A DNA stretch of 20,000 nt from Halocafeteria seosinensis. Lineage: Eukaryota. The DNA lies in contig LVLI01000141.1 of the NCBI GenBank assembly GCA_001687465.1, positions 183,034-203,033 on the forward strand. Direction: 5' to 3'. Shown here piece after piece: positions 1 through 20,000 of the stretch (within the stretch, counting starts at the first letter, position 1; each line of letters starts with the position of its first letter). Position numbers and translations under genes: made by a program. The notes under the pieces were generated by a model. That model was not told where the DNA came from, did no database searches, and was given only the letters and a program-made list of their open reading frames with translations.

Positions 1-2
1 CA

Positions 3-1073
3 AGTGCCGTTCCGCACAGCCAAGCTGTGTGGAATACGCTATTGGAATTGTGTCTAAGTGATGATGTGTCAGACCCCAAGACTATGCAAAAAGTGCAGGA
101 AGAGGTGGCGTTAAACCGCACGAATTCAACAAAGCCACCGGTTAGGGAAACAGACCAGTCGGCGATATCAGACTTTGATGAGGAGACAGCTGAGCTGAAT
201 AAGGAAGCACGGGAGGAAGCACTAGACTCCGAAGTGCTCAATGAAATCTTGCGAAACAGGCAAGCAAATTACGATCAAGAGCACGCCCTTGTTTTGGTCC
301 AACTACATGATTACTACAATGGCATCGTTCATATGGCTGATAAAATGCAGCTGTATGACTTACTCTTACAAACTCAGATTACTCACGCAAAGGCCGCGTC
401 ACGGCAAGGAAACTCGGAGGAAGCGAAGATGACGCGACAAGAGATATTGGCCACTGTAAGCCAACATGGTATAGCGGATCGTGACTTGTATGTAAACGCT
501 CTGCAATATTTTGTCGATAGTTATACTGCATCAAACGACAAAGAAACTGAAAAAGAAGAGACGACTTGCATCAAGACCGTTTTAAAAGAAATCAAATCAA
601 AAGGAGTGCTCGAGCCTCTACAAGTAATTGATATCGTGTCCAGTAATCCGCGAACGCCGTTTGTATTAATCAAGAACTATATAACCGACCAGTTGAAGGA
701 AGAAGAGAAGACAACAGCAGAAGACCAGCGCATCGTGGAAGGACTGAGGACGGAAGCCCGACGATATAAGGAACAGGCCAACGAGTACCGGAAGAAGGTG
801 AAACAAGTGCAGGAGGAGGGGTCGAAGGCACTAAGAGACACACGATACGGTACACGATCCATGGCGCTCGGACCCACATCGCTTACCGCTGAAGAAGAGC
901 AAGAGATCTATCAAAAGCAGCAAGCTCAAAAGAAGTTTGGCGACCCGAAGCGTCTTCTTCAAGACCTTTCCACAGCCGCCAGTATGGAAACAGTTACGGA
1001 ATATTTTAAGCACGGTTTATTTGATAAAGAAGCTTTGGAGAAGACTGAACCTGAGCGCGAAACGGACGACTAG
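3..1073 (+). CDS. VPS11: Vacuolar protein sorting 11 homolog (HOPS/CORVET core), C-terminal part; 5'-truncated at the window edge
   Basis: Frame is open from base 3. It has a clathrin-repeat-like helical region (VWNTLLELCL...YDQEHALVLVQLHDY...LYVNALQYF...LEPLQVIDIVSSN...IKNYI), a coiled coil (EDQRIVEGLRTE) and a VPS11_C-like tail (RLLQDL...ETVTEYFKHGLF). TAG stop at 1071-1073. No RING cysteines seen. Confidence 0.8.
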   Translation, partial: SAVPHSQAVWNTLLELCLSDDVSDPKTMQKVQEEVALNRTNSTKPPVRETDQSAISDFDEETAELNKEAREEALDSEVLNEILRNRQANYDQEHALVLVQLHDYYNGIVHMADKMQLYDLLLQTQITHAKAASRQGNSEEAKMTRQEILATVSQHGIADRDLYVNALQYFVDSYTASNDKETEKEETTCIKTVLKEIKSKGVLEPLQVIDIVSSNPRTPFVLIKNYITDQLKEEEKTTAEDQRIVEGLRTEARRYKEQANEYRKKVKQVQEEGSKALRDTRYGTRSMALGPTSLTAEEEQEIYQKQQAQKKFGDPKRLLQDLSTAASMETVTEYFKHGLFDKEALEKTEPERETDD

Positions 1074-1092
1074 AGTGCTTGACACAACGTAC

Positions 1093-1098
1093 AATAAA
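1093..1098 (+). promoter_or_regulatory. Candidate polyadenylation signal of VPS11
   Basis: AATAAA 20 nt after the stop codon; a second AATAAA lies near 1247. Motif only. Confidence 0.3.
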
Positions 1099-1327
1099 CA
1101 CAGTACCGGTAAAATTCTCTTAGATGTATCACGTCCTTGTCGCTCATTGCCTGTTAACGTGAAGCCAACGAGCTATTCCCCCGCGAGCAACCAGTGGTCG
1201 CCGACTACTTGAGTTAAGACGCGCTGAAATGTCGTGTTCAGGATTCAATAAAACAGGAAATGCGTATTGTCTAATTTAGAGTTGATTATTCGTTGCATTC
1301 ATTCTTGAAGTTGTTTGGATCCATGAC

Positions 1328-1686
1328 ATGGCGGAGCAAACAGAGGAACGAAGGGACGACAAGCTCTCGTTTGAGCAAATCTCCCAGTTAAAGCTACAGA
1401 AAGTACGTTAATGACTGCTATTTTCATTCCATCTCTTGTGCATCAAAATCAACCCTGGAGTTCACGTTTGTCTTACCCTTCAACGACACAGAGTGAGATA
1501 AAGCACCAACATAAGGCTTACTTGGAGAGTCACCCAGAGCTCCAGAGGATCCTCAACGACTTTACAGCGTCCGTCTTGGCGGAGAAGCCAGAAGATGTTT
1601 ACGCTTTCGCACAACGATATTTCGAACAAATGCGCCCACTGGTGAAGGAAGAAAATGGGCAACAATCGGCAGACAAAAGGGAATAG
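1328..1686 (+). CDS. Small RIIa/dimerization-docking (DD) domain protein, RIIAD1/CATIP-C-like, 89 aa; exons 1328-1402 and 1492-1686
   Basis: ATG at 1328 and a phase-0 intron 1403-1491 (GTACGT...ACAG). The spliced product MAEQTEERRDDKLSFEQISQLKLQK|SEIKHQHKAYLESHPELQRILNDFTASVLAEKPEDVYAFAQRYF matches the DD motif YL..HPEL..LL.DF...L..KPEDV..FA..YF. Confidence 0.8.
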
Positions 1687-2166
1687 AGGGGGCGCCGATG
1701 CAGACCATGTTACAGCGTTAAAGCTTCCATCACTAGCATCGTACCAAATCTGGGAAGTCGGATTCATATAGAACGACAATATTCTCGGAACACAATTTTC
1801 TCAAGGCCACTGTCCTTGCAGGAACACCCGTGTACGATACCCCATACTCGGCAGTTCCCGGGCAAATCTCTTGGAACTGAGTATGATTTCAAGCCAGAGA
1901 ACATGATAGTATAAGGTCAGTTCCCCTGTATGTGTGTCTGGCAAGCGACACGATTGATGTATTTGCACCCTTTGCGATCCACGAAGAAGAATATAAAAGA
2001 AAGGAAAAGTGAAATCAATAGCTACAGCTCGACAATTTATACAAATTAGCATGTGTGCGTGTGCATACTCAGTATTGTGTTTGTTTCAGTCAAGGAATTC
2101 TGGGTGTTACAGAAGAAATTTATCATCTAGCCGAAACAATTTGTCATATGGATGTCTTGTGCGTCA

Positions 2167-3093
2167 TTAAAATCTCTGTTGTAGTCGAGAGGCCACTTGT
2201 CTCATCTGGTTATATACCTTTCCGGGAGGCGCACCGAGTATCAAGCTGCAGATAGCATCTCTTGCAACTTGAATGTTACTGTAGGCTCCCAGGATATGTA
2301 TCTTAGAATCTGCAACGACGATTCTCGTGCGGGTAGCATTCTCTATAGCATGCCGTGTCTTCCCCTGGTGGCCCGCAATCCTACCGATGGCACGGCTCAA
2401 ATGATCCCCTTTCAGTGACTTAACATCTTGAATCTCGAACGACTCTGTTGCCAATTAACATACATGTTGTATAGTTCGTATCTATGAATATAATAACTGC
2501 TACCAGTGCCTTACCGATGTATAAGTCTTCTAATCGAAGCAAAGCCACAGCGTCGTTAACTTCGAAACCTAACATAAAGGCTCGGACAAAGTCCTCAGCT
2601 TTTTGGAGCGCAGAGAAGTCCTCTGTATACTCCGAAGTCTGTATCAAGCGGGAAAAAAACACAATCATTATGGCTCGCTTTACAGCACAATACGCATTAT
2701 GTGAGAGATCGTACCCTCATCTCGACACATCTCGTCTTCGGGTTAAATCTAATCTGTAGCTTCATGTATTCCACGACGGGTCGCATTATGTCCTCCCATT
2801 GCTCACGTAAGGGTGTATATCGGTGCTGAGGCACCCTAATGGAACGAGTCTCTGATTGTTTGGTCTGCAAACGAATAATAGTTGCATAAGAGCCTCCCTG
2901 TCTATCTGGGTGTCAGGCTAGACAATCCACATACTGCCACGTCCGCTGCACGAAGAGCTGGAAATGAAGGTCGACTGTCTGTCTTGCCCGGTCCACTAGC
3001 GCTAGCGTCTCCACTACCGCTGGCATGTGTTCCATTGCTGGCTGAATGCATTTCCACGTCTTGCGACGGGATCTCTTCCTCCGCTGCGCTCAT
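2167..3093 (-). CDS. PNO1: Pre-rRNA processing KH-domain protein PNO1/Dim2, 236 aa; exons 3093-2935, 2864-2715, 2638-2515, 2444-2167
   Basis: Three GT-AG introns (2865-2934, 2639-2714, 2445-2514) join into one frame with the hallmark motifs [95 protein letters not shown] and [11 protein letters not shown]. Confidence 0.96.
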
Positions 3094-3429
3094 TTTCTTC
3101 TCTTCCTAAGCCTTATCACTCAGGTCAGACTGTTGCAGACGATAGTGCCGAACTATATGACTACTCAACGGGCTTCTACAAACACCTATGCGCATCATGC
3201 CACGCACATCCTCGCTGTATATGGAGGATGGCGGTCTGACACCTTCAGGTTGAAGTTATACTGAAACATTTGATTGCCATGTTGTCCGCCCTTATCCCGT
3301 CGCGGGTTTAATGCTCAGCAAGCCACTCATCTTGTCGTATTGGAAGACATATGAAGACTCCTATGTATAATATTGCTTACACGCTCTAAGAATTGTCAAC
3401 CTGTTATAGGCCTAGAGAGATAGACAAGG
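3094..3429. promoter_or_regulatory. Short divergent intergenic region, probable bidirectional promoter (PNO1 / lipase)
   Basis: 336 bp between head-to-head ATGs, with an AT-rich TATAATATT near 3367. Positional inference only. Confidence 0.4.
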
Positions 3430-4590
3430 ATGAAAGGGCTCTTGTTGAACTTGAGCCTCTTGGCGTTGTGCCTCTTATCCATGTGCGGGTCTGCCGTCGG
3501 AGGATACAACCAATCGGAAGCCATTCGCTACGTTTGGGTACGTATACTAATTCGTCATTTGCCTACCGTCTCCTTCTTGATGCCACAATGTTTCTGTTGT
3601 CTGAATGCAGCTGTCGGCCGCGGCTTACTGCAGTGCGGAGAGCATTCGGCACTGGAACTGTGGACGCCCATGTAGGTTCACGGCGTGGTATTTATAGTGA
3701 AATGCATATGGCTTTAACCTGTTTTCGTTTTTCAGGCGAGGAAATACCATCCATGCGAGACGTGAAGCAGATATACAACGAAGATTACGATGCTCAAGTA
3801 TACGTTGGGCAGTTCAAAACAAGTTCTGCTGCTGCTGGTAAGCTCCCTTCTTTTTTAGTGTGCTATACGCGTTACTATGTATGCATACTCTTGTCAAACA
3901 GACACCGTCATAAGCTTTCGAGGGACGATCCCTTCTTCTATACAAGACTGGATCGATGATCTCTATTTTACTGAAGAGGCTCCGTATCCCTACTGCTCAG
4001 GGTGTAAGGTACACAGCGGCTTCTATGATACATACAGTGCGCTAAAGCCACAAATCAAGGAAGCGCTGAATGACCTTGGGGTGGATTCTTCGACGAACAT
4101 CCAAATCACAGGGCATAGTCTTGGAGCGGCGCTAGCGGCACTGTGCGCCTTTGATTTGAGACACGAAGGGTACACTGTGCATCAAGTCTTCACGTTCGGA
4201 CAGCCGCGTGTGGGAAATAAAGAATTCGCTGAGACGTTTTCATCGACTGTGCACCAGTCCACTACGTATAGGGTTGTACATTGGGCAGATATTGTCGCTC
4301 AGCTTCCCTGGCAGTCTACGTTTGGCGTGCCATTTCATCACGTCCCCACCGAAGTTTGGTACAACGCAAATAGCTCTTCGTATACGGTGTGCAATGGCAG
4401 TGGTGAGGACCCGAATTGCAGTGACTCACTGGATCTTGCGCTGTCTGTATCGGATCATCTTCACTACATCAATATTCCTATTTCCGGGAGTTGTGACCCT
4501 GGTTCGTTCAGTTTCAACGATGCCGCTTCGTTCGAGATATTGAGTGCAGAAGCCAAAAAACAACTTGATCGTATAGGGAAATCAAACTAA
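3430..4590 (+). CDS. Secreted class 3 lipase (alpha/beta hydrolase, Lipase_3 family), 319 aa; exons 3430-3537, 3611-3671, 3736-3837, 3902-4590
   Basis: Signal peptide MKGLLLNLSLLALCLLSMCGSA. GT-AG introns 3538-3610, 3672-3735 and 3838-3901 restore LSAAAYC...WNCGRPC, VISFRGT and CKVHSGF. Nucleophile motif GHSLG at 4111-4125, TFGQPRVGN, catalytic Asp in HWADIV and His in SDHLHY. Confidence 0.93.
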
Positions 4591-6316
4591 ATGAAGAAGG
4601 ATGCTTATCCAATAGAGAAATCAATTTTGTCCTAATCATTCAGAGAAGAAAGGTAGGAATAGGTAGGCAATGTATTCAAGGGTCTGGTAGATAAGTCGTG
4701 GAGCTTACGGTAACGTTTGCCGGTGTTCATCCATTAGAGTATCATATTACCCGAATTGATGCGCAGTTTTACCAACCCTCCTCACCCCCGCCCAGAGGAA
4801 ACTCCTGTTTAGATTAAAACACTTATGGTATGCTTGCTAGAGCACCAAAAGGACGTAACCAGTTCGAAAACGGCATATGGCATACTGCCTGCGGACGTGA
4901 GGGCTACAATCCTCGTTGTTTAGCCTACAAAGCGCCCGGGAGACAGGAGAGAGACCGACAGTGATCTTGCTACAGCTGCGCTTTTTATACAATTGCATAA
5001 ATCCCCGTTATTCTGTGTATTAGAATTGCTCTAACCGGAAGAATCTACTCTGCATGTCAGGGAGTAGTATCAAAATAGGTACGGAGAGAACTGGGACGGA
5101 AAAGGCCTCAATGCTGTGTAGTATAGTGTGTACCAGCCCATCCCGTTCGAGACGTGCGCAATAAAGACTTGGCTGATAGTTTTTCGTCAAGTGTTGGCAC
5201 GGCACATCATGCCGCACATGTGAGGAGATTGATGCCCAATTTCCGTGACAGTTTCCTGCCTTCAGCATTTGATACGTCCTCTGGTCATCATGGTAGTGCA
5301 GGTTCCTTATCATACACTTAGAGTCTCTATATGAGGTTAACATCAATTAGATCAGCGATCCTATTTACGGGATTGTGGTCGCGGCCTGTTCAGTTTCAAT
5401 GCGCAGCTTCGATCCAGATAAGTGCACAACCAAGGAACAAATTGACGGTAGAGCAGAGAGCTCAAATCAATGAGAAAGTCGAGCAACTGTCTCTTCGTAC
5501 CGGTACTGCTGTTTTCTTTCCCATGTGATCCGAATCGCCTTCATGCTGTTACCAGCATCATTGTGCACGCCCGAAATCACGCGGAGTTTACCAGTATTTC
5601 TCGTCCTCCACCTCCAAAGGCTGTCCCTGTCTCAGTCAAAGGACAATTAGTGCACTTTTGCTTCAGCGCAAAGAAGGAATGCAACTTGTTTCGAACATAC
5701 TAACTTGAGGCACCGATGGGGAAACAAGAGGTCATAACCGGAGGCGGAGTTGCCAACTGGATGTGCCGCATCTACCGGTACGACTCAACCCCTGGAAACT
5801 TCAACAAAATGCAACATTTGTCCAAATGGGCTTGAGGAGAAGAAGCGTGCATGGCACCATATCATGACTGTTACTTCCAGAAAATGCCGGATGAGAAAGG
5901 AAAAGAGCGACAACTTTGTATGCTGGCCAATGCGTCAGGTCGCAGCCGAAAGAGCCGTACCGCCACGAGCGGCGCACCGGCTCTCGCAAGCTGCCAGTCA
6001 AGGAATATGCGCCGATACGTTTGGAATCATACCCGGGTAATAAAGCAATGGGGTTGTTTGTTTTTCTGTCTTCAAAGTGGTTAAAAGTGTAACAAAAGCG
6101 AAGAAGAGAGTTTTCGTGAGTAACGTTTGCGTCATTCCTCCCTTTTGTGGTTGTTTGTATTTTTGAAAGGAAGCACGCCATGCGACCGAACTGACCCGAA
6201 AGAGCCAACGACGTTGACGTGTTCTGTGTATGTGTTTTGTGTAGAATTCGTGTTACACACGTACTGGCATAAGAACACCCCTCATCCCCTGCGACACTAG
6301 GACTAAAAGAGGCAAA

Positions 6317-9300
6317 ATGGCTTTGTATAGCCGAAACGAGAATCGCGTCGTTGAGCCTGTGAGCGATTTCCCGGAGAAGAGAGGCTGGAGGACAACAAAG
6401 AGGAAACGATATTTTAGTACCCGAAGAGAAGCTCATCGGACACATATAACCACCTTTTTAGCAGCGTTATGCGCAGTCTTCAGCGCGATATCGAGCGCGG
6501 ACATTACTATGAGATACGAGGATTCCATAGACCCCAGACTTCAATGCGAGGGTAAGTAAACGCCAGCACGAGCGGCGCTTCGCCACCGCCGCTTCAACTC
6601 GTGCGATATGTTGTTTCTGCAGAAGGACAAGCCAGTTTCATCCTGGAAACCGGCGAAGATTATTCTGAAAAGTGTTTTAAATTCATTGACATTGGTACGT
6701 GAACCAGGGCTAGGGTGGGAGCAAGTGACTGGACGGTCTAACGTTCGTGTGCTTTGCCGCAGTAATACCAACGGAAAATTTTGGAGATGTCGACAAACTT
6801 GTTCTCGATGTCGATAAGGGCAGTGCTCAGTTTCTTTCCCCTGTTGCTGCGGATAGAGCGGTGGTAGTGCTCAATGAGACATTCGAGGATTCCTGTGGTA
6901 TGTGGCCTTGTGGCCTATCGAGTACATACAGGTGCACCACCCAAATTCCCATTGAATTGTTTGCGACCCGTTTATGCAGTTGAACACCCAATTCCGGGTG
7001 GAGGAGAAATTTGCGGTGGACGAAAAGACTGGATGCTGCTAGTAGTTCATCCCGATACCGACTTTGCAACAGCATCTGATATCGAAGTGGGTATCGATGT
7101 CCGCTTGATGGCCAGTTCTAGTGCTACGTCTACCATATATATGCGCGGTGCATTGAGTAGTAGCTGTGCTAATCCTGATGAATTTACGGCTAACAGCACT
7201 GATGCCACCGAGTGGGTCGTTCCCGGAATTGCGCATCGAGTATCCCGGCAAGATGTCAGCATAGATACTGATTTGCCAGGTCGCCATTACGAAGTGCCCT
7301 TGGATTCCCACAAGCGACCATATAGTGTCAACGTTGAAATATCCGAGTGCATAGACGTTTTGAACGCAACGTGGACTTTGCAGTCACCTGGTGGAATTAG
7401 TGAGATAGAGGACCAATTCAGCGTCTCAGAGGGCCCGCTGAAACAAAGGCAATGGTTTAATGAATTGCGCCGAAATAGTATTACGACGTTTGAGATATTA
7501 GATTCTGATGGCTCCGTAGGAGCAAAAACTGCCCGCTCATTTGGATTAGATACCGAGTTCCTCGTCTCTCAGTTTGAAAATATTCCTGACACGGTACCGG
7601 TGCTACACGCTCAAACGAGGAAGATGGAGCACTCTGCAACTATAGTTCTCGAGGGAGAGGTTATTGATTATACCTATATAAATGAGACGGATGTTCTGAG
7701 TGTTGTCCCTCCCCGTTCAGAGCTCACTGCCAATTGGCGGGCTGTGAAAAGGACTTTGACTGACCCAGTTGGGCGTAAGATAGCAGGAGCGACCCTGACA
7801 CAGCGAGGGTCTATCTTCTTTACCGAACATTTACTCTTTCGCAACGCTTCGGTAAACGTTGCCCACGATGGTGAGTGGCTTGTAAGTGACGAAACTTTCA
7901 TAAACGCTTCTATGCAATGCGGGAGGCACTCTCTCGAGCTAAGTCGCGGTGCTCATTTTACCGTGGATGCACCTTTCCTTGGTCCTTCACGTGGTAACGC
8001 ACCCGAGTTCAAATTCGATTTGGATTCCATTTTCCAAAAAATGGGGTTGATGGATTATGCGGGAAGCAAGGCATTCCGTGGATTGGCTTGCGACCTAGAG
8101 TTTTCAGTCGAAATAGGAAACTCGTCGTCAGATGGCTCCCGTGTATACCACTGGCAGGAACTAGAGAGCACGATGTCTTTGGACTTTTTGGCATGTGATC
8201 CTGTAGAGTTCAATGGCTATCCGGCCTTTCCGAACAGGTCGCATGCTTGTGATCAGTTCTCATTGGAGACTCTCGACCCAGACTCCCGGAACAGCATCTT
8301 CCTGGAAGGGGCTAGCCTCTCTCATGAGCTCCTTGCCGTGGATGGAGAGCCGTTTGAAGAAGATACACAAATTTACCCTGGAAGAGAACTCACGTTCCTC
8401 ATCGAATACGAGATGCCGTTTACAGCCGAGGGAGAACTGAGCATCGCAGTAGATTTGGACACGAATTACTTGGTTTCCCCGCAAAATTTTCATGATAACG
8501 CAACCTATCCTTTACGCACCCGTTCTGGTTCTGGACGCATCCCTCCTTTAGGTTTTTTTCAATACGGTGTTAACGATAATCACTTCGGTTCCATATCCGA
8601 AAGTGTTCCGCAGTTACATATCTCGGGCACACGATTCACTCTTACGTGGCCAGCTGTTCAGGATAGTGACAATCGGCAAAGCACTATTCATATTCTTTAT
8701 ACGCTCCCTGTAAGGGACATTCCTTCGGCCGATGGAACAGATATAATATCCACAGCCAGAGCTAACTCGGATGCTAGAACGGCGGCTTCTCAGGAAGCCA
8801 TCAACGAAGCCAAAGTGGAAGCGTCAATTCAGGTAGTAAATCGACAACCTGTTCTGAAAATAAGAGCGGGTTTCGCCGGAGTCACAGGTAACCGAGAAAC
8901 CAGTGGGAATACGCTTCGTCCGAATGATGGAGAGCCTCGACTGAGCAACTGTGGGGGTACTTGTGGTATATCAGACCTCTTCGTCTTTGAGAGATTCGCG
9001 CGAGCATCTTGGCCCTTCGTCAGCAGTGGGGAAGAAACGTCTTTATCCGAGTCCGGAATTCTTGACATGCCTCAGGAAATAACGAACCTGGATGCTGGCG
9101 ACGTCGCTGTCTTCGCTGTCGGACTTGTGAACTTGGGGGGATCTTCTGCTTTCGATGTAAAGTTCGAATGTTGGACGCCTCTAATGTCTCAGAATGCAAC
9201 GATGTTCCCTCTGTCTGCTAATATCTCGCTCGTATCTAACGGAAGCTCATTTGAGATTTCAGGCAAAAGCGGCAATCTGTTTGTAGATGATGAAAACGTG

Positions 9301-12300
9301 CTCTTCGTCAACGCAAGTGTCTCGAAACTAGCTGGGAGGACTCAGCCGTCAGGTGCGCCGGTTGCCACCGGAGAGAACACTTTGGTCTTACTTGTCGAAA
9401 CCACCGCTGAACCGTTGCTGCAATGGTCCGGCTTCACGTCGAATGCGTATAACACGCAATCTGTAGAATGTCGCATCTTGGAGTACGCCTCTGTTCCTGG
9501 AGGACCGGATTTTACAGAATCCAGCTTGGATCTTCCTGATTTTGAGTCTGAACCTGCCGTTGGACGAGCAGCTACTGCTACCTTTGCAGACTCTTGGATT
9601 ATTGGGGAAAGTAGCAACCCTTATACAAGCGATAACTTAGTTGGTGCTGACAACTGTGTGGAGCAACACCACGGAGAAGAGACTCGGCTCGGCATGCTGG
9701 TCGAATTTCCCGAGGGCTCTACGGATAAAGCGATTGCCAGTGTTGACATGAGACCACCAAATTCATTGTTCATTCTTGAAGAGTCAGTTCTCTTTTCCAG
9801 GACTTTTCTCGGAGCTCCTGGCCATGCTCAGAATTTCTCCGATCAGAGTGTGGGAGTGCTTGTAGGAGCTAACATTCAGGCTCGTATCGACATCGGGATG
9901 ACCCAGGGCGGCAACATCTCGATCAAGTTCACTGACGTCGTGAACTGGCCTGATAACAAATACAGCAGTGTGGACTCGTTTGATACAGACAAAATCTATT
10001 TTGAGTTTAGCACGCGGGTGGATGTAGACTTCGTCAAAGTTACTGGCCAGGAAGCCGTTTTGCAAGTTTCATCGCCTAGTCCGTCTACTGCGGAATTGAC
10101 CGGGAGCTCTTCGACTCCGATCTGTTTCGATGGCACTACGCCTGCCGAAGTGGTGTTGGTGGAAGCGAAGAGTAATATATCCGGGGTCATTAGTGCTTAC
10201 GACTTCTTTGAAGCGTCGTTCACTCTTCAGTTGGACGGCATGGACCAAATTCCTGCCTATGGCAACTTCACTCTGGCAAGTGAATCGCAGAATGCTACGT
10301 TTAGTGGAGTCTTCTGGGAAGATGGATCATGGACTACGGGTGTCGATGGAGAATGTAGCCGGCAACTAGCTTCTGGGTCACTCCATGTTTCACAGCTCTC
10401 GTTTGGATGCGAGGGCCAGTTTCCTCCTGGGGCACAATTGAATTTTACGGCAGTTTTTGTAGTCCAACCGAATTTAATTAGACCGTTGGGCAACGTGATT
10501 GGATCAGCGACATGGGCGTGGCAGAGCGCACCCGGTAGTTTGGAAGACGATGGAACATGGATGAATGTCCTGCGCCGCCAGAGCGATATTGACGCTGTCA
10601 GCCTCAACGTTGCTGGCCTGGTGAACGGCGGCCTGAGTATTACCAATACGAGCTTCGAACATACTGCAAGCTCCCGATTTGATCCGGAGATAAACGATGT
10701 TACGTTTGGAGAAGTAATCACACTCAGTGTTGCTATCCAACCACCAGAGTCTCAGTTCGATGCTGGCTTAGTCTTGAGAGCGAATGATACTTTAACCGGA
10801 GGCGTAGAGGTACACGACATTCGACTTCCTTCGTCAAAGGTAGGAAGGTTTGTCACTGTGGACACAAACTCATCTGACATTTTTTCCAGCTCGAGTGGGA
10901 ATGGAACACATGTCTTTGTGTCACTCGGTGAAATCTTGATTGACACAGGCAATGCATTTTCTACGCCTCATGATATGGAGTTTACGGTTGAAATTGACGT
11001 GTTGTTAAATGCATCTTCAGAGTTGGAAGATGGGGATATCGTTGGTCTCGATGCAAGAATTTATTACGTTTGGCCGCTTGAGGATCTCAGAAGAGATGGT
11101 GTCAGCGAACTTCTTGGTACGACAAAATTTGAAGTTGTGGAGCCTACCCTAGTCCTAGGGCATGAATTACAAGTTCCATCTCTTAACATAACGGGAGACG
11201 AGGTTGTGACGATTGAACTGGCGTTATCGCACGAGGATGGTATCCACGTTGTGGCACTCGGGGATACATCGTTAACTGCGGGAAACAATGAATTAGTTAG
11301 CGCGGGATTCTCGGTCACCATACTCGATACGACGTCAGAGTTTTCCTCATTATATTCTGTTTCAGAAGTGATCGTCAATGGCAGTCAGCAATCAATAACC
11401 CATGGCACTCGGGTCATTCACACTATCAGGGAATTTCACCAAACGTCAGGTCCATTATACATCGACTATAAGATTCGTCTAAACTCCGATGTTGAGAGCG
11501 GCAAGACATTCACGCCCAGGTTTGAGTTGTCATGGAGCTCTGGGCCTCAAGACACTGTCAGGGACGAGTTTGGGTTATCTTCCAGTGTTCTAAGGGACTA
11601 CTCTTTTGCAACGGAAACCGAGAGAAATTTCAAAATTGCTGAGCCGGTGGTCCAATTGTTGTCGGCGAATGACGATGGTCTTGTTGACTTCTTGGGTGAT
11701 AATGAAGTCACTTTCGGAACTGCGATCTTTTTCAATTTCTCCTTGTCTGTAGTAGAGGCACAGGTCACAGATGGACTGCTGCATCTCGAAGTGACAAATA
11801 TTTTCTTTCTTGAGCTAGATACTGTTTTTGTTCCACGCGGCATCGGCTTCGAAAACTGCACACATGATAAGACGGATTTGTCGTTGACCAAGGATTCTGC
11901 TGATATTCGGTTTTGCCCGTTTCTAAGTAACACTACGGGAGGTGCGCGATACAATATCTTTTACTTTACTGGGAAAGCTTACGTAGATGGATGCAACATA
12001 CCTCAAAGCAATCGAGGAGAGGTTGGTCACATTGAGGTCTCATTTTCTTCCAAACTCACCAGCTCAGGTGTCGTCCACTCAGCGGAGAAAAAGCTTGTGG
12101 AACCGCATGGTGTTTCTCTCAACGCGGTTGTATCGCCAGTTTCGGGTTTGTTCTCGGGCGTCTTTGTGGACACACAGATAAGAGTCTCTTGGGAGGACGA
12201 GAAAGACTTATCGCCAGCCTACAATGTAACATTGATTGACGACGGTGTCGTTCTCGACGAAGCCGATGCGTTGATTCTTGTGTTAAGACAGATCTCGGTA

Positions 12301-15300
12301 GGTGGAGTCGCCGTGGAGAACAGCAAGCCTCTGGTTGCGGTAGATATCCTGTCACCCTTAGCGGAGCTAAACGCTACATACGACACTATTGTGAGTCAGG
12401 ATATAGAATTTGGAGAAGAGGGGGACCACGAAATAGGCCTTCAACATTCGTCGCATCCTAACCCGATCGTTGGCTGTCAACAGAACTATACTACCATTGT
12501 TCCTTATTCCGTTTTCGTGGGTGTTCCGTGGGTCAATTTAACTGTTGAAAACGATAGGGAACTAAGGCCAGACAGTGGCAACATTATGACAGCTGGATCC
12601 ACGCTTAAATTCGATGCGTCGCTGAATGTTCCTCCGGGCAAGGCTAGTGAGTCGGCACTGAAGTTTACACCCAGTGAGAACTCTTGTATCCAATTTGATA
12701 GAGTAGAAGCTTGGGAGGTAAGCAACTCCAGCTTTTTGTTCGTTCAAGGCAAGTCCTGGGACTCGGTTTTTCAGCAGAATGTTACCCTCTCGGGAGACAC
12801 CTTTATTGTGCACTTAGGAACGTTGATTTCCCGAAGGTCTGAAGAAGACGACGAAGTGAATGTGCTCCATGTTGTTTTCTCGGCTTCTGTGTGTAGGGGG
12901 AATTCATTCCCAGGAGTCAAGCGAACTGTTTCATTCCAGCTAGTGTCGAAAGATATCGCCGCTGAGGCTATTACCGCCCAGACCTCTCTGTTTTACGTTC
13001 AACCATACCCAGAATTGACGTTGTTCCCGCAAAGTGTTGTGGGAGTTGAAGGACTTCAGAAGTTTAATCTTACATTGAAACTTGCAAACCAGGCTTCTCC
13101 GTTTTCCTCACAGGGGTTTAATATAAGTTTATTTAGCCTTAGGAGTTACTCGTCGTTCAGGATATCCGAAGTGTTCCTCGTCGATCATATGGCATCCAGT
13201 AAGAATGTAGGTGGCAACGTGGTGGCCAATATGTCGATAGTCGAGTTTGGGTTCTTAGAAATTGGCAATGTGATCAATGCTTCTTTGGAAATCGAGGTGC
13301 TGCCGACCATTCAGCTTGGAACTGTGACGGAACTTGAGTTCGCCATGCACGTCAGTACGCATCCTTCCGCGGGCGGAGTTTGCATACCCTCGGAGTTTCC
13401 TCTCTCTCGCATCGAAAGTGCAGTCCCGCAGGTTCAGCTGTCTTTGGATGTAGAATCCGTTGAACCTCCTTTTACTCAATCCCTTCCCGGAGACACGGTT
13501 TCTTCTCCTCCCGGAGCAAAATTGTCCATCAATGTATCAGTGGTATTCCCTGTCGGCAAGGTTGCGGGGTTTCGGGCTACAATTGAGTCTGATGATGCGG
13601 TAGTGTTTTTAGTGTCCACAGATTATTTTAACATTACCTCCCTCGGCCAGTCCTCGTTTACACTTGAAAATGTTAGCATCAGCTCAGATACTGTCACGGC
13701 TGAAGTTGGTGATGTGTGGAACAATGGCTCCTCCGATGGTTTGTCATTGTTTCAACTGGTGGCAACTGGAATCGTTACAAATGCCTCAAGTGTCGTTCGA
13801 GGAGTAACGTCCCCTGTCCGTTCTCGCGTGCAAGGAACTTTGCTTACGGTGACAGAGAAGGAGTCTACTGTTCTAGTCTCCGAGCATAACGTTACTACCA
13901 TCCAAGGTCCTGGGGCCACTATGTTTGTTGAACCAGTTGAATACGTATCTTGGTCATTCCAGCTGGAGAATGAGGGTGGGGTACCGGTACTTAGTCCTCT
14001 TTTTGATGTGTCGTTGTCTACGACATCCTTGAATTCATACGTTGTCAGAAGCGCAACTGTCTTGGCTGAAGAAGATGTCGTTCTGTGCCCAGATCTTTCT
14101 ACACAAGCGTGTATGTTGCCAGCTATAGATGTGGGGGATCGCGTAACGCTAAACAGCACTGTTTTTTTGACAGTTGAGGCCGAAGTGAATTTAATCCAAG
14201 AGATTTTTTTCCGAGTGACGGGCTATAGTAGACCCAAACCAGGTTTATACAGTCGAGAATATGATGTCACGCAAGGTCTATCTGGTACTTTAAGGATACC
14301 ATCGCCGGCGTCGCTACTCAACGTCGCAATATTAAGCGAATGTTGCAGAGATGGCATGGCGGCCATTGGGGCTACCATACAGTTAACGCAGGTGCTTGAG
14401 TTCGTAGGCGGCAGCCTGACGAATGCATCGCTTTGTCTACAATGGACACCAACTAGTGCTCTTTCTTCGGTGCAAACAAAACATGTTGAGAAATCGTCAG
14501 GCGTAGAGTTTGTCGCTGCCGATTTTCTGGAACTCGGCGTCCTGCAACAGCCAAACTCAGCGTTTCTGTATCTGGGAGACTTAGTGATCAACAACACGCA
14601 TCACGGTGTATCGGACAACGTCACCATCGAGTTCACTGCTATTGTGAACACTGTCAGAGAAAACGGAATCGGCTCGACGGTCAACGTTACTTCTAGTCTG
14701 TCTTCATCAGCCGTTTCAGGTAAAGATACATTTTCGACGGCTGATTTTGTTATTACGGCGCCGCATATTACTCTACGGCACAACTATGGGCCAGATTCTG
14801 CAATACGGGGAATGACAAGACACAATATATCTGTTGAGGCAGTAGCTCAGTCATCAAACCTGAACTCTGACGCGTTCAATCTGACGCTTCATGATGAGAA
14901 CCTGGGACCCCGTTATCGTCTCACCAATGTTTGGCTGTTGTTTGGAAATGGAACCATGGATCACATATGGAGGAGCAAATGTGTGTTCAACAAATCATGT
15001 TTCCATTTTCCAGAAGGCCAATATATTTTAAGCGGCGAAGACGATGACACAACATTACTTGAGCAATTGACACGAGGCGATGGTGTGTGTATAACATATG
15101 AGGTGGAGGTTCGATTTGATATTTTACTGAACAGTAGTATCTCCGTATCCCCGACTCTTGGATGGCAAAGCGTGTCGAATTGTTTTGATGGAAATTGTCG
15201 AAAGTATACAAACACTACCGAGGATGTAGTATTCTTACATGTGCTATCTCCGACGTATGACGTCGCTAGTCTTGTCTTGGAGAAACCTGCTGGCTTCAGT

Positions 15301-18300
15301 GGACTGTCGAGTGATTCCGTGCTGGTGGGACAACCTTTCCATGTTATTATAAATATTTCTTTTCCTTTTGGCAGAGTTGCGGGCTTCGAGAGTGAGCTCG
15401 TAGTCAGTGGTGTGTCGTTTGACTTTTCCGAGTCCGTTTCCATTACCAACGAGGGAGTTGATCTCTTGTCCACGGACAGTGGAAAACTGGTGACAGACGT
15501 CATTTCGATTCAGGAAAGGGTATCATGGTCTATAGGGGACATTCTAAACGACGCCTTTGCTGAAAGCAGGACAAATGAAAAGTTGTCGCTGTCGGTGGAG
15601 GGTCGTGTAAGCAGTACCGAGGGAATGCTAACCAGTGGAAGCGTATTCGACTTTACCCACATATCGTATAGCACGAGTTTGCATAGGGAATACAATAGGG
15701 TTGTGTCGCAGGAGCATGTTGTTCGAATTCCTTTGCTTGAGGAATTTGTCGTAAGCCCGACAACCGTTCGACGACTCAATGCTACGGACTTGGTCACATT
15801 TGAAACACGGATTGCTCATGCGAACAGTTCACAAGCTCCAGCTTATCGGGTAGTATTGTTTGACAGACGTCTGGCTTCTCAAAATTTCGTCCTGGAATCA
15901 GTTCGTGTTAATGGTGAACCAAGAGATGGGACGAATTCGACTGTGATCACCGAAATTGACGTATTGGATGTGTTATCCGATGTCAACATCGAATGGTCGT
16001 ACAGATTTAGTGAACTGCTGCCCGCTTCAGTAATCATCGACATGGATCTAGGTCTGGACTACTGGACGTATCCCAATACCTCATTCGGCCTAAAGCAGCG
16101 GCTCTTTCCTGCGGCAAACCCTAAATTGACGACCCAAGATGCGGTTGTGCTGTCATCAATCTCGCCCGTCGAGGAACACACCCAAACTTTGGAGAAATAT
16201 GTAAGCATTGGAAGTGAGATTACTTCGGAAGTTGAGATGATTTTGCCGGGTGGATCACTTTTCAATTTCGAGCTTAACACGAGTATCCTTTTCGCTGAGG
16301 GAAAGCATGGTTTATCAGGATTGTTTGATTTCAGTTTGGATCGAGTTGAGATAATGGAAGAGAATGCTAATATCGAGTTTGAGTGTGATTCTCGCGTGCC
16401 ATTAAACCAAGAAGAGTTGAATCGAGTGTTGGAAAAGGGTAGTGATACTCTGTCGTATTCTTTGTGCGATGTACGTGTTCTCGGTGTCCCGGCTGCTCGT
16501 GTGATATTATTCTATAGTGGATACATTGCGAATGTACCGAAGAATCGTCAAAGAGAAGCATTAAGTGTGAGTTCACAGTTAACCTACGATACGTTGGAGG
16601 ACCTATTGCGATCTGCTTCGTCAGCACTAACGATTGTGGAGCCATCGTTGGCGAACTCGTCGTTAGAAGTAGCTCAATGTGGAGAGCTAATTGGTTCGGA
16701 CGAATCCGTTACGTTGAATATAACTATTCCAAGAGGAGTACTTCCTGAAGGGGTAGCCTATGATGTCATAATTATCGACGAATCGGTGTCTAATGTGTCG
16801 TTCGTGGTAACTGATGTTCGCCAGGATAGTGAGACACTTACAGTCCCAGATGCAACTCACGTCGGTGGATCCTTGAATCCGATCTTTCCTGATAAAGGAA
16901 GTAGTGTTTCGTTAGAATATGAAATTGTTTCAGTGAATCGTGTATCATCAAACCTTACTGTGGGTGAGACGATCTATTTTTCTTACTCATCTGTGTCGAA
17001 TCGGAGTTTGGGTCGAGAATATCGAAGTAATGTGTCGTTTGTCCCATGCGATGTGGTAACAACTGACATAATTCTATTGAACGAGAGTGTAATTAGTGAG
17101 AATGTTGCTCACAGGGATGATGTTGTTGTAGCGGGTGGAAGAGTGCGGTATGAATTTTGGTTATTTGTGCCTGGGTATTTTGTAGCTTCTCCCTCTGTGT
17201 CTTTGGACTTTGAGGATAGTTCAATGGTTGATTTGGAAGCAGTATCTCTATCAGATATTGTTGTTTCCATAGTCATTCCTTCCGGAGAATTGCATTTGGC
17301 GACGGGCGGCGATATTTGTAGCAATGTTGACTCCGCTGTAGTTCAGATTGACCGTGCCCATGACAAGTTGAGTATACTATTTTGTGATTTGGGTGTAGAG
17401 GACATCGCATCGGGTGGAGTGTACATGAAAGTTGAGAGTATATTTGAGTTGGCAGTGAATGATTCGACAGTTTCCGGAAGACATTTAGAGTTTTCAAGCA
17501 ATTTTGGGAAGTTGACCGTTGGGAAGGAAGTTTTCTCGTATAATCTTCCAGTGGTTGAGCCCGAAGTACATCTTGAGATTTCTGGGGAGACTACGTTTAA
17601 TACCGAAGGGTTAATGCGGCACAATATTTCAGTAGAAGCCAGGGCTCTTGGGGAGTTGTTGTCTCACTCTGACGCCTTCAATCTGACACTCCGAGATGAT
17701 CACTTGGGGTTTGCCTACCGGCTCACAAATGTTTGGTTGTCCTTGGACGATGGGACAAAGGATCACGTATGGAGCAGTAGCTGTGTATACAACAAGTCAT
17801 GTTTTCATGGTGAGGCTATCGGGTACATTGTAAGAGGAGAAGGCAGTGAGCATGATATAAGTTTGATCGGAGTACTTCGCCAAGGTGATAGCGTGGCTAT
17901 AACGTATGAAGTGGAAGTACGGTATGACATTGTATTAAACAGTAGTATCTTCGTATCTCCTACGATTGAGTGGCAAAGCGTATCGAATTGTTCTGACGGA
18001 GCGTGCCGAAAGTATACGAACATTTCTGGTGATAGCGTCTCGATGCATGTCTTCCCACCGACGTATGAGATCGGAGCTGTGGTCATGGAAGAACCTTCCG
18101 GATTCAGAGGGTTATCAAGTAATTCCGTACTGGTTGGGCAGCCGTTTCAAATAATTATCAATATCTCGTTCCCATTTGGAAAGGTAATTGCTCTGGAGAG
18201 TGATCTCGTGGTTAATGGTGTATCCGTTGTGTTTCCTGAGCTTGTTTCGATCGTACATTCGGGAGTTGAATTGTTGTCATTGGATAATGGTGAGGTGGAA

Positions 18301-20000
18301 ACCGCTGAACGCTCGAGTCAGGGTCAGGATCAGGGTCGGGGAAAGATATCCTGGTTCATAGGAGATGTTCTAAACGACGGTTTTGCTATGAATGAGATGC
18401 ACGGGAAACTGTCACTATCAGCGGAGGTCCGGCTAAGCAGTAGCGAAGGCGAGGTGATGTCGTCGAGTGGTGAAGTATTCAATTTTACTCATACTATAAA
18501 CAGTTCGAGTTTGCGACGAGAATCTAACACGATTGTTTCTGATGATAATATTGTTAGGATTCCGTCGTTACTGAAATTTGATGTAAACCCGTCGACTGTG
18601 AATCAGCTAAATGCTACTGATCGGGTCACGTTTGAGACTCGAATTTCTCATGCAAACATTTCAGAGGCTCCAGCGTATCTGCTGGAACTATTTGATCAGA
18701 GTTTGCACTCTCCATATTACACCTTGGAGTCTGTTACTGTGAATGGTGATCCTATTTTAAACGTGAGCTGGGGATTAAACTCAACTGTAATAGCCCGGGT
18801 TGATTCGTTAGATCGTGCATCGGAGCTTGTTGTGGAGTGGACATACAAGTTTAGTGAGCTACTTCCTGCCTCGATAATCATTGATTTGGAGTTCTGTGTT
18901 GATTACTGGACGTACCCTGATATTTCGTTTGGATTCAAACGAGGAGTATGCGCTGTAACAAACACTGTTTTGATAACGCAAGACGCTGCGGTATTGTCAT
19001 CTGTCTCATCTGCTATGGAAGACACGCAAATCTCGGAGAAATATGTAAGCATTGGGAGTGAGATTACTTCGGAGGTTGAGATGATTTTGCCGGGTGGATC
19101 ACTTTTCAATTTCGAGCTTAACACGAGTATCCTTTTCGCTGAGGGAAAGCATGGTTTATCAGGATTGTTTGATTTCAGTTTGGATCGAGTTGAGATAATG
19201 GAAGAGAATGCTGATATCGAGTTCGAATGTGATTCTCGCGTGCCATTAAACCAAGAAGAGTTGAATCGAGTGTTGGAAAAGGGTAGTGATACTCTGTCGT
19301 ATTCTTTGTGCGATGTACGTGTTCTCGGTGTCCCGGCTGCTCGTGTGATATTATTCTATAGTGGATACATTGCGAATGTACCGAAGAATCGTCAAGGAGA
19401 AGCATTAAGTGTGAGTTCACAGTTAACCTACGATACCTTGGAGGACCTATTGCGATCTGCGTCGTCAGCACTAACGATTGTGGAGCCATCGTTGGCGAAC
19501 TCGTCGCTAGAAGTAGCTCAATGTGGAGAGTTAATTGGTTCGGACGAATCCGTTACGTTGAATATAACTATTCCAAGAGGAGTACTTCCTGAAGGGGTAG
19601 CCTATGATGTCATAATTATCGACGAATCGGTGTCTAATGTGTCGTTCGTGGTAACTGATGTTCGCCAGGATAGTGAGACACTTACAGTCCCAGATGCAAC
19701 TCACGTCGGTGGATCCTTGAATCCGATTTTTCCTGATAAAGGAAGTAGTGTTTCGTTAGAATATGAAATTGCTTCAGTGAATCGTGTATCATCAAACCTG
19801 ACGGTGGGTGAGACGATCTATTTTTCTTACTCATCTGTGTCGAATCGGAGTTTGGGTCGAGAATATCGAAGTAATGTGTCGTTTGTCCCATGCGATGTGG
19901 TAACAACTGACATAATTCTATTGAACGAGAGTGTAATTAGTGAGAANGTTGCTCACAGGGATGATGTTGTTGTAGCGGGTGGAAGAGTGCGGTATGAATT
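6317..20000 (+). CDS. Giant (>4,480 aa) secreted or cell-surface protein with tandem DUF11-like/Ig-like beta-sandwich repeats, adhesin-like; exons 6317-6551, 6623-6694, 6763-6897, 6980->20000; 3'-truncated
   Basis: I translated frame +1 from 6982 to 20000 and found no stop; the N at 19947 is a third codon position (AAN). Three phase-1 GT-AG introns (6552-6622, 6695-6762, 6898-6979) join upstream exons in frame, including the hydrophobic stretch ITTFLAALCAVFSAISSA. Recurrent motifs are GE.(V/I)T......P.G, VVEP.L, DAGD.(V)..F....N....A(F/Y)DV and W.S.P...R.Y. Confidence 0.9.
14818..19034 (+). repeat. Diverged in-frame internal duplication: 14818-16190 versus 17617-19034
   Basis: Both copies read RHNISVEA...SDAFNLTL.D..LG..YRLTNVWL...NKSCFH...ITYEVEVR.DI.LNSSI.VSPT..WQSVSNC.DG.CRKYTN...SVLVGQPF..IINISFPFG...LNATD.VTFETRI.HAN.S.APAY. 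About 60% aa identity by eye. The offset grows from 2799 to 2844 nt through in-frame indels. Confidence 0.92.
16191..20000 (+). repeat. Near-identical direct repeat with a 2844-nt period: 16191-17156 = 19035-20000 (continues past the window)
   Basis: Base-by-base comparison gave 14 substitutions in 966 nt plus one N and no indels. The period of 2844 nt equals 948 codons. Confidence 0.97.

Follow-up and report, generated by a model that had tools for sequence, protein, structure and literature searches.

What kind of protein does a eukaryote make from a reading frame of more than 13 kb that standard family libraries do not recognise? The question is raised by a gene of the protist Halocafeteria seosinensis, which fills much of a 20,000-nucleotide stretch of contig LVLI01000141.1 (assembly GCA_001687465.1, positions 183,034 to 203,033, forward strand; hereafter the window). 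The original prediction described a rod-like extracellular protein that could not be matched to any named eukaryotic family. We have found no such family either; what had been overlooked is a group of giant bacterial surface proteins with DUF11 and pilin-D2-like domains, which are collinear, full-length homologues. The fold, domain map and likely origin that we propose all derive from this homology. We assign a probability of about 0.64 to the reading that the product of this gene is a chain of 27 or more domains, collinear with the bacterial giants and acquired long ago, which serves as a secreted, membrane-tethered, N-glycosylated adhesion filament at the cell surface.

A domain chain shared with bacterial giants

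From amino acid (aa) 1356 onwards two domain types alternate in the protein: B, which is pilin-D2-like, and A, which is DUF11-like. With the domains ahead of them they amount to at least 27 complete domains in the window:

6503..8277, + strand: tip region, N1 (aa 63-232), N2 (aa 233-392) and N3 (aa 393-580), from profile alignment
8278..10602, + strand: B0 (aa 581-763), A0 (aa 764-1011), B1 and A1 (to aa 1355), from profile scores and the B0 model
10603..19998, + strand: stalk of 20 complete alternating B and A domains of 136-177 aa, with a cut 21st

The beta-rich domains of ~160 aa foreseen earlier are borne out, as is the proposal of a rod-like extracellular protein.

Bacterial loci (at least 138) were fetched with a generalised B motif, based in part on bacterial proteins. 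Among the matches listed, 91 bacterial units were combined into a profile that scores 149.6 bits on the giant protein, where 20 local shuffles reach at most 2.5, and the match lies mostly outside the motif used for fetching. In the opposite direction, the protein's own A profile, which is free of that motif, finds bacterial domains at up to 29.1 bits (101 domains above 10 bits) and its own B profile at up to 33.6 bits (112 above 10 bits), with none on reversed sequences in either case. The bacterial A profile scores 83.9 bits on the giant protein (shuffles at most 3.9), and six of its 11 A domains align with DUF11-bearing bacterial domains at z 5.8-8.1, indicating homology. Residues 581-1141 align in one piece at 105.8 bits, a figure obtained with 25 bacterial rows picked by their match to this same region; a bacteria-only B0-A0 profile gives 103.6 bits, with 300 shuffles at 4.6 or below. 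Over aa 149-1012, identity to 20 full-length bacterial rows is 18-22%.

At the N-terminus the likeness was spotted by eye and then tested by global profile alignment. N1 reaches z 4.9 (0 of 150 shuffles) and scores 6.8 against -8.4 for the best of 37 other segments, and N3 reaches z 2.5 (1 of 150 shuffles). The bacterial mature N-terminus aligns at aa 72, right behind a predicted signal peptide, for which exon 1 supplies a long basic n-region (aa 1-44), a hydrophobic stretch (aa 47-62) and, by inspection, a cleavage site after SSA (aa 62). The signal-like segment noted earlier is retained; its hydrophobic aa 47-65 stop at the point from which the mature protein of the bacteria starts, and it would direct the protein into the endoplasmic reticulum (ER). 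The same residues give the highest 19-residue hydropathy (1.75) of the 4,487 encoded in the window, among which a hydropathy scan found no transmembrane helix, as had been noted. The protein is rich in Ser (12.0%), Val (10.5%), Leu (9.0%), Glu (7.2%), Gly (7.0%) and Thr (6.7%) and very acidic, with an isoelectric point of 4.4.

Among the matches listed, the order N1-N2-N3-B0A0-(BA)n is found in 35 of 70 long bacterial open reading frame rows, representing 29 distinct genes, while many other rows are cut by locus ends. All six bacterial proteins scanned pass the DUF11, TIGR01451 and TIGR04226 cut-offs. Full-length B0-A0 matches are present in 4 of 401 genomes in Pseudomonadota (the phylum of locus L053), 3 of 201 in Planctomycetota (L031) and 8 of 201 in Chloroflexota (L050), each count including the centre genome; with a single protein as query, 1 of 151 genomes in the phylum of L020 matched. 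From its signal peptide onward the giant protein is, on the alignments above, collinear with this bacterial family. It is a homologue of the DUF11/TIGR04226 family and probably works as other members do; it fails the isopeptide test described below and is not filed as CLIPPER. The bacterial family itself (L002-L080) is conserved across Chloroflexota, Pseudomonadota, Planctomycetota, Verrucomicrobiota, Acidobacteriota and Thermodesulfobacteriota, with varied C-termini formed of runs of DUF11 or SdrD_B, and no paper on it was found in the literature searched.

Gene structure

Frame +1 contains no stop over 6982-20000, as had been claimed, whereas the other five frames contain 111-299 each; its last stop lies at 6865-6867, leaving it open from 6868 to the window end. 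Four exons join in frame to give 4,487 residues with no stop, across three predicted GT-AG introns. Contigs were drawn from one DNA-like run (X1) and three runs that behave as spliced libraries (X2-X4), none of them recorded as RNA.

6317..6551, + strand: exon 1, with the ATG and the start of domain N1, from sequence inspection
6552..6622, + strand: predicted intron 1, 71 nt, GTAAGT...CAG, from sequence and N1 model scoring
6623..6694, + strand: exon 2, within N1, from in-frame join and N1 alignment
6695..6762, + strand: predicted intron 2, 68 nt, GTACGT...CAG, common to the 8 best of 399 models
6763..6897, + strand: exon 3, within N1, from in-frame join and N1 alignment
6898..6979, + strand: predicted intron 3, 82 nt, GTATGT...CAG, common to the 4 best of 399 models
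6980..20000, + strand: exon 4, aa 148-4487, open to the window end with its stop beyond, from the open frame and X1 contigs

The introns were examined by scoring 399 open GT-AG models against the bacterial N1 profile. Spliced N1 scores 6.8 in global alignment and unspliced frames -27 to -49; on this measure the first bacterial domain is alignable only across the predicted introns. The four best models all carry introns 2 and 3 as first predicted. The original splice model ranks third, and the two above it shift acceptor 1 to 6625 or 6631. The three short 5' exons spliced to a giant exon are supported by in-frame joining and N1 homology; the predicted junctions 6694/6763 and 6897/6980 are unchanged, and 6551/6623 is ambiguous in its acceptor (6622, 6625 or 6631). 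No contig spans the three 5' junctions, X2-X4 being without cover at 5977-7304, and the junctions are predicted from sequence and homology. Within exon 4, a short stop-free intron of 3n length may lie outside the stretches covered by X2-X4. The sequence holds a single N, at 19947.

Predicted fold of the domains

The fold was modelled twice. Model 1, of ten repeats, has a predicted local distance difference test score (pLDDT) of 43.8 and was too poor for assigning a fold; its Foldseek matches were to Cna, Als and Sdr, at TM scores of 0.2-0.3. Model 2 covers aa 149-1012 with 25 bacterial rows, at mean pLDDT 53.5. In it B0 attains pLDDT 75-88 in most blocks and matches EbpB at VIA Z 12.8, with a root-mean-square deviation (rmsd) of 2.5-2.6 Å over 127-130 residues, LrpA at 12.4, BcpA at 12.1 and RrgB at 11.6. 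PrgB scores highest, in a match that spans two domains (Z 13.4, rmsd 6.0 over 237). Integrin legs score similarly but at rmsd above 11 Å, which reflects the common immunoglobulin arrangement. On this model, whose underlying alignment is mostly bacterial, B0 is assigned the CnaA fold of pilin D2 domains. It resembles the stalks of Gram-positive pilin D2, AgI/II and PrgB proteins (EbpB, LrpA, BcpA, RrgB, PrgB) in its CnaA-type beta-sandwich, at Z 11.5-12.8 and rmsd 2.5-2.8 Å over 127-135 residues. Unlike Gram-positive pilins, the protist protein is a single long polypeptide instead of sortase-linked subunits, with no LPXTG motif in the window and no isopeptide residues. The A domain is strand-rich in both models (pLDDT ~50-60 and 35-80), with two-domain PrgB and AgI/II matches at rmsd 4.5-6 Å, and N1-N3 are modelled mostly below pLDDT 60.

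Loss of the isopeptide triad and gain of sequons

A Lys/Asp/Asn pattern forms the isopeptide bond in a CLIPPER crystal structure (PMC12617251). Among the matches listed, the triad is complete in 272 of 313 bacterial A domains and 202 of 276 B domains. As aligned, it is absent from all 22 protist repeats tested (11 A and 11 B). The A domains keep Asp in 9 of 11, Asn in none and Lys in one, where the alignment is poor (z 1.4); the B domains keep neither Lys (0 of 11) nor Asn (0 of 11). N3, B0 and A0 also carry another residue in place of the conserved Lys, which in N2 coincides with a gap; in B0, Lys has become His596 and Asn has become Ser738. Some prokaryotic DUF11 domains are likewise described as being without the bond (PMC12617251).

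N-glycosylation sequons number 91 against 38.6 expected (2.4-fold, p 1e-16), a ratio that ranges from 0.70 to 1.33 in 63 bacterial proteins, and cysteine makes up 1.15% of residues against a bacterial median of 0.15%. We infer that glycans and some disulfides have replaced the isopeptide cross-links as stabilisers.

The closest counterparts are bacterial giants annotated as 'isopeptide-forming domain-containing fimbrial protein' or DUF11 proteins (TIGR04226 with PF01345/TIGR01451; L020, L037, L040, L080). They have the same signal peptide, domain order and spacing, with a period of ~300-330 aa, at 18-25% identity to the protist protein. Unlike them, the protist gene has three predicted introns, no intact triad, the sequon excess just given and eight times the median cysteine content, and unlike those scanned its product stays below all curated cut-offs. 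Its B-A run is longer than in any of the 29 bacterial genes with a full N-terminus, as far as their loci reach.

Internal duplication and selection

A tandem duplication was mapped by chunked phmmer, self-BLAST having returned the diagonal only, and a near-identical tract is also present in two copies:

14752-17550 and 17551-end, + strand: tandem duplication of a six-domain unit, ~940 aa
16191-17156 and 19035-20000, + strand: near-identical tract, 966 nt, with 14 mismatches and the N

In the old part of the duplication the copies are 51-65% identical, with synonymous sites near saturation and a ratio of nonsynonymous to synonymous change (dN/dS) of 0.07-0.16 over five 100-codon blocks. On account of this ratio, we conclude that the giant gene is under purifying selection and is a working gene. 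The copies of the 966-nt tract are 98.5% identical, which points to gene conversion or unequal crossover in the recent past. In X1, contigs run into each tract copy and stop 30 letters inside, at 16220 and 19064, as a collapsed repeat would give; this falls one letter short of the rule applied for bridging.

Database searches and two relatives

No Pfam family was found in aa 149-1355, nor any recognised adhesive domain at the tip, and the giant protein has no Cna_B or SdrD_B family match. In the Atlas, DUF11 clusters came top for both halves (0.92-0.93), weak matches by the Atlas's own note. A phmmer search of 1.84 billion representatives returned two proteins, P0001 and P0002, both from ENA contigs and both probably eukaryotic to judge from their build. 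P0001 is 32% identical over 692 columns with the same domain order. The triad is gone from the four of its domains that were examined, and its C-terminal end consists of a 59% Ser/Thr stretch followed by a hydrophobic helix (Kyte-Doolittle 2.51) and a tail. P0002 has a signal-like start and matches aa 2149-2350. The stalk domains of P0001 also carry passenger inserts (aa 92-207 and 340-635), namely an unnamed stretch of ~115 aa and a Gly_rich_2 domain (PF21722, E 2.9e-22). Three other proteins (P0003-P0005) were dropped as relatives; they score on the Gly-rich or Ser/Thr parts of P0001 and do not match the giant protein.

Word-based searches returned nothing for residues 1000-2600 among proteins of 2376-7562 aa, and nothing for the repeat alignment among proteins of 603-2000 aa. 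Near-exact-word scans, which show little, gave no match in PDB sequences, plasmids, metagenome contigs or viral contigs, nor any match for the eukaryote-type alignment in genome contigs; the viral scans neither support nor counter a viral route of transfer. The literature searched held no eukaryotic DUF11/CLIPPER adhesin, though the supplements of PMC12617251 may list eukaryotic hits; papers on DUF1118 and DUF1194 that surfaced as eukaryotic DUF11 cases were false text matches.

Origin of the gene

We consider it likely that the gene was acquired from a bacterium long ago. The argument for transfer is that the family occurs in many bacterial phyla, that eukaryote-type relatives are scarce and that a 13-kb exon sits in an intron-rich neighbourhood, direction and age resting on distribution; the three introns would have been gained in the first domain, N1. 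Several observations weigh against the overall interpretation. N2 is not significant by itself (z 1.0), and local comparison of aa 56-600 with the bacterial N-terminus, by hidden Markov model and by hhalign, gave nothing. In 7 of the 22 repeat alignments z is below 3.5, making the triad columns there unsure, and the sequon ratio of P0001, 1.23, shows little excess. The giant protein reaches no Pfam cut-off, whole or by domain, with just DUF7927 below threshold (E 0.011-0.064), and five overlapping pieces gave no NCBIfam hit, TIGR04226 included. Both fold models are of low overall confidence, and the second has an alignment that is 25/26 bacterial. In a quick tree of 64 rows the protein's branch measures 3.9 changes per column, and no donor emerges. 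The 1,200-aa phmmer search missed the bacterial homologues too, such that distant eukaryotic relatives could be missed equally. Codon usage, which correlates with 739 host codons at r 0.24 (bacterial homologues: median -0.38, best 0.49), is uninformative, and the value for the host counts on the same side. Lastly, the adhesion role, surface location and C-terminal anchor are proposals about a protein whose C-terminus lies beyond the window.

The long branch and the limited reach of these searches would equally suit an old and more widespread eukaryotic family of the same ancestry, inherited vertically or transferred very early, with the giant gene as an ordinary member. Public databases contain uncharacterised proteins of invertebrates whose repeats alternate in a similar way. 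We regard this explanation as improbable: just two matches emerged among the 1.84 billion representatives, and a 13-kb exon amid genes that are interrupted by introns at intervals of a few hundred bases accords with a source that lacks introns. The 2025 survey, which sought intact triads in proteins below 1,280 aa, describes its eukaryotic isopeptide-domain hits as being without homologues in related eukaryotes (PMC12617251). Far less credible is an artefact, whether a eukaryotic contig joined to DNA from a bacterium or virus, or a pseudogene in decay. Bacterial homologues, the survey's attribution of eukaryotic hits to contamination (PMC12617251), the lack of any RNA-like contig over the 5' junctions and a one-letter gap at 12465 in one X1 contig could all be read in that way. 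Yet introns interrupt a homologous domain, sequons and cysteines have been gained, dN/dS is 0.07-0.16, X1 depth near the gene start (77-107) resembles that of the flanks (98-132), and GC content at third codon positions is 0.45, compared with 0.50 for host genes and a median of 0.80 for bacterial homologues. The earlier claim of a real eukaryotic gene holds.

Proposed function and comparison with known systems

Under the favoured interpretation, an anciently acquired adhesion filament, the signal peptide would send the protein to the ER, where N-glycans and some disulfides would take over stabilising from isopeptide cross-links. Pilin domains measure ~4-4.5 nm each, and the stacked domains would form a rod of 110-120 nm or more. 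Binding may fall to the loop-rich N1-N3/B0-A0 end as the tip, and anchoring, as in P0001, to a Ser/Thr stalk with a transmembrane helix past the window's edge; recombination among copies could vary the length and surface of the protein. Duplication would have lengthened the bacterial chain to its present 27 or more domains. Two traits of fibrillar adhesins, an export signal and a tandem stalk, are present. Prey capture, coat and scale had been offered alongside adhesion; ancestry favours an adhesin or coat filament, and we make no single choice.

The same origin and fold might instead belong to a structural protein that is released to form part of a coat, cyst wall, scale or slime matrix and has no specific ligand, in the manner of Dictyostelium colossin A, which is described as a structural slug protein (PMC3188802). 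The tip without a recognised adhesive domain and the strong acidity are in keeping with this role, as is low contig depth in the spliced runs, which fits a stage-specific gene. P0001, with its Ser/Thr stalk, transmembrane helix and tail, argues otherwise, and the family-specific N-terminal domains all persist in their order, with no reduction to plain repeats. We consider a released matrix protein unlikely, if less so than a widespread eukaryotic family.

Colossin A is in any case a precedent for a protist giant derived from a bacterial stalk domain: it too is a giant protist protein of bacterial adhesin stalk repeats and a candidate for horizontal transfer, built of Cna_B repeats where the present protein has alternating CnaA-type domains and a whole bacterial N-terminal architecture (PMC3188802). 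CLIPPER (DUF11) stalks of fibrillar adhesins offer the other comparison (PMC12617251). The protist A domains are homologous to them and stand in tandem behind a signal peptide, but the bond-forming Lys and Asn have gone. CLIPPER domains are described there in bacteria and archaea, and eukaryotic hits are judged false positives or contamination; here the context is that of a eukaryotic host, and the giant gene, which standard libraries fail to recognise, seems to be a genuine descendant of such a protein in a eukaryote. A bolder version, which we hold tentatively and rate as somewhat doubtful, proposes that CLIPPER/pilin-D2 fibrillar adhesins have here their first genuine lineage among eukaryotes. 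In it a whole bacterial giant was captured and gained introns, isopeptides were swapped for N-glycans and disulfides in every domain, and a recombining multi-copy filament family with passenger domains in its stalk loops grips bacteria or surfaces.

With its more than 20 domains, the gene would be a repeated natural experiment in how a CnaA stalk stays intact without its cross-link, and would illustrate the adaptation of an entire prokaryotic surface protein to the ER. It also suggests that further orphan giants of protists could be bacterial adhesins gone unnoticed, revealed by family-specific profiles only.

Surrounding locus and possible further copies

The window is a compact eukaryotic region, with the following genes upstream (Pfam scan; starts approximate):

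3-1073: VPS11, 3' part
1327-1686: RIIa-domain protein
2167-2990, minus strand: PNO1
3426-4590: class 3 lipase

Two of the four flanking genes, plus PNO1, have spliced joints; seven GT-AG introns of 64-89 nt in three neighbouring genes are visible as joints in X2-X4. The 1.7 kb at 4590-6316 contain no evident gene. X2-X4 contigs extend past the lipase to ~5480, with loose ends at 4781 (X2) and 5319 (X1).

X1 covers 30 of 30 bins of the window. Low-depth X2-X4 contigs, which carry neither strand nor expression level, lie within exon 4 at 7412-8559 (all three runs), 8797-9064 and 12433-12776. The first of these has a depth of 6-10 in each spliced run with almost nothing on either side, and two of its contigs stop at a T7 run (8553-8559); a transcript that is short or antisense may explain it, as may an effect of the library.

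Of 101 X1 contigs, 23 are just 90-95% alike. Two track the frame to 12011 and 17264 and then diverge, and by hand translation the 30 divergent letters that follow are open in frame (DSLLIAQWT, HPEEIDHP). Together with rising depth, these contigs suggest further paralogues or mosaic copies. The X1 contig with the gap at 12465, which also has a compensated insertion and deletion (12067, 12072), is possibly a broken paralogue. GC skew is 0.23-0.33 in five of the six bins of 17001-20000, compared with ~0.05-0.1 in the first half of the open reading frame.

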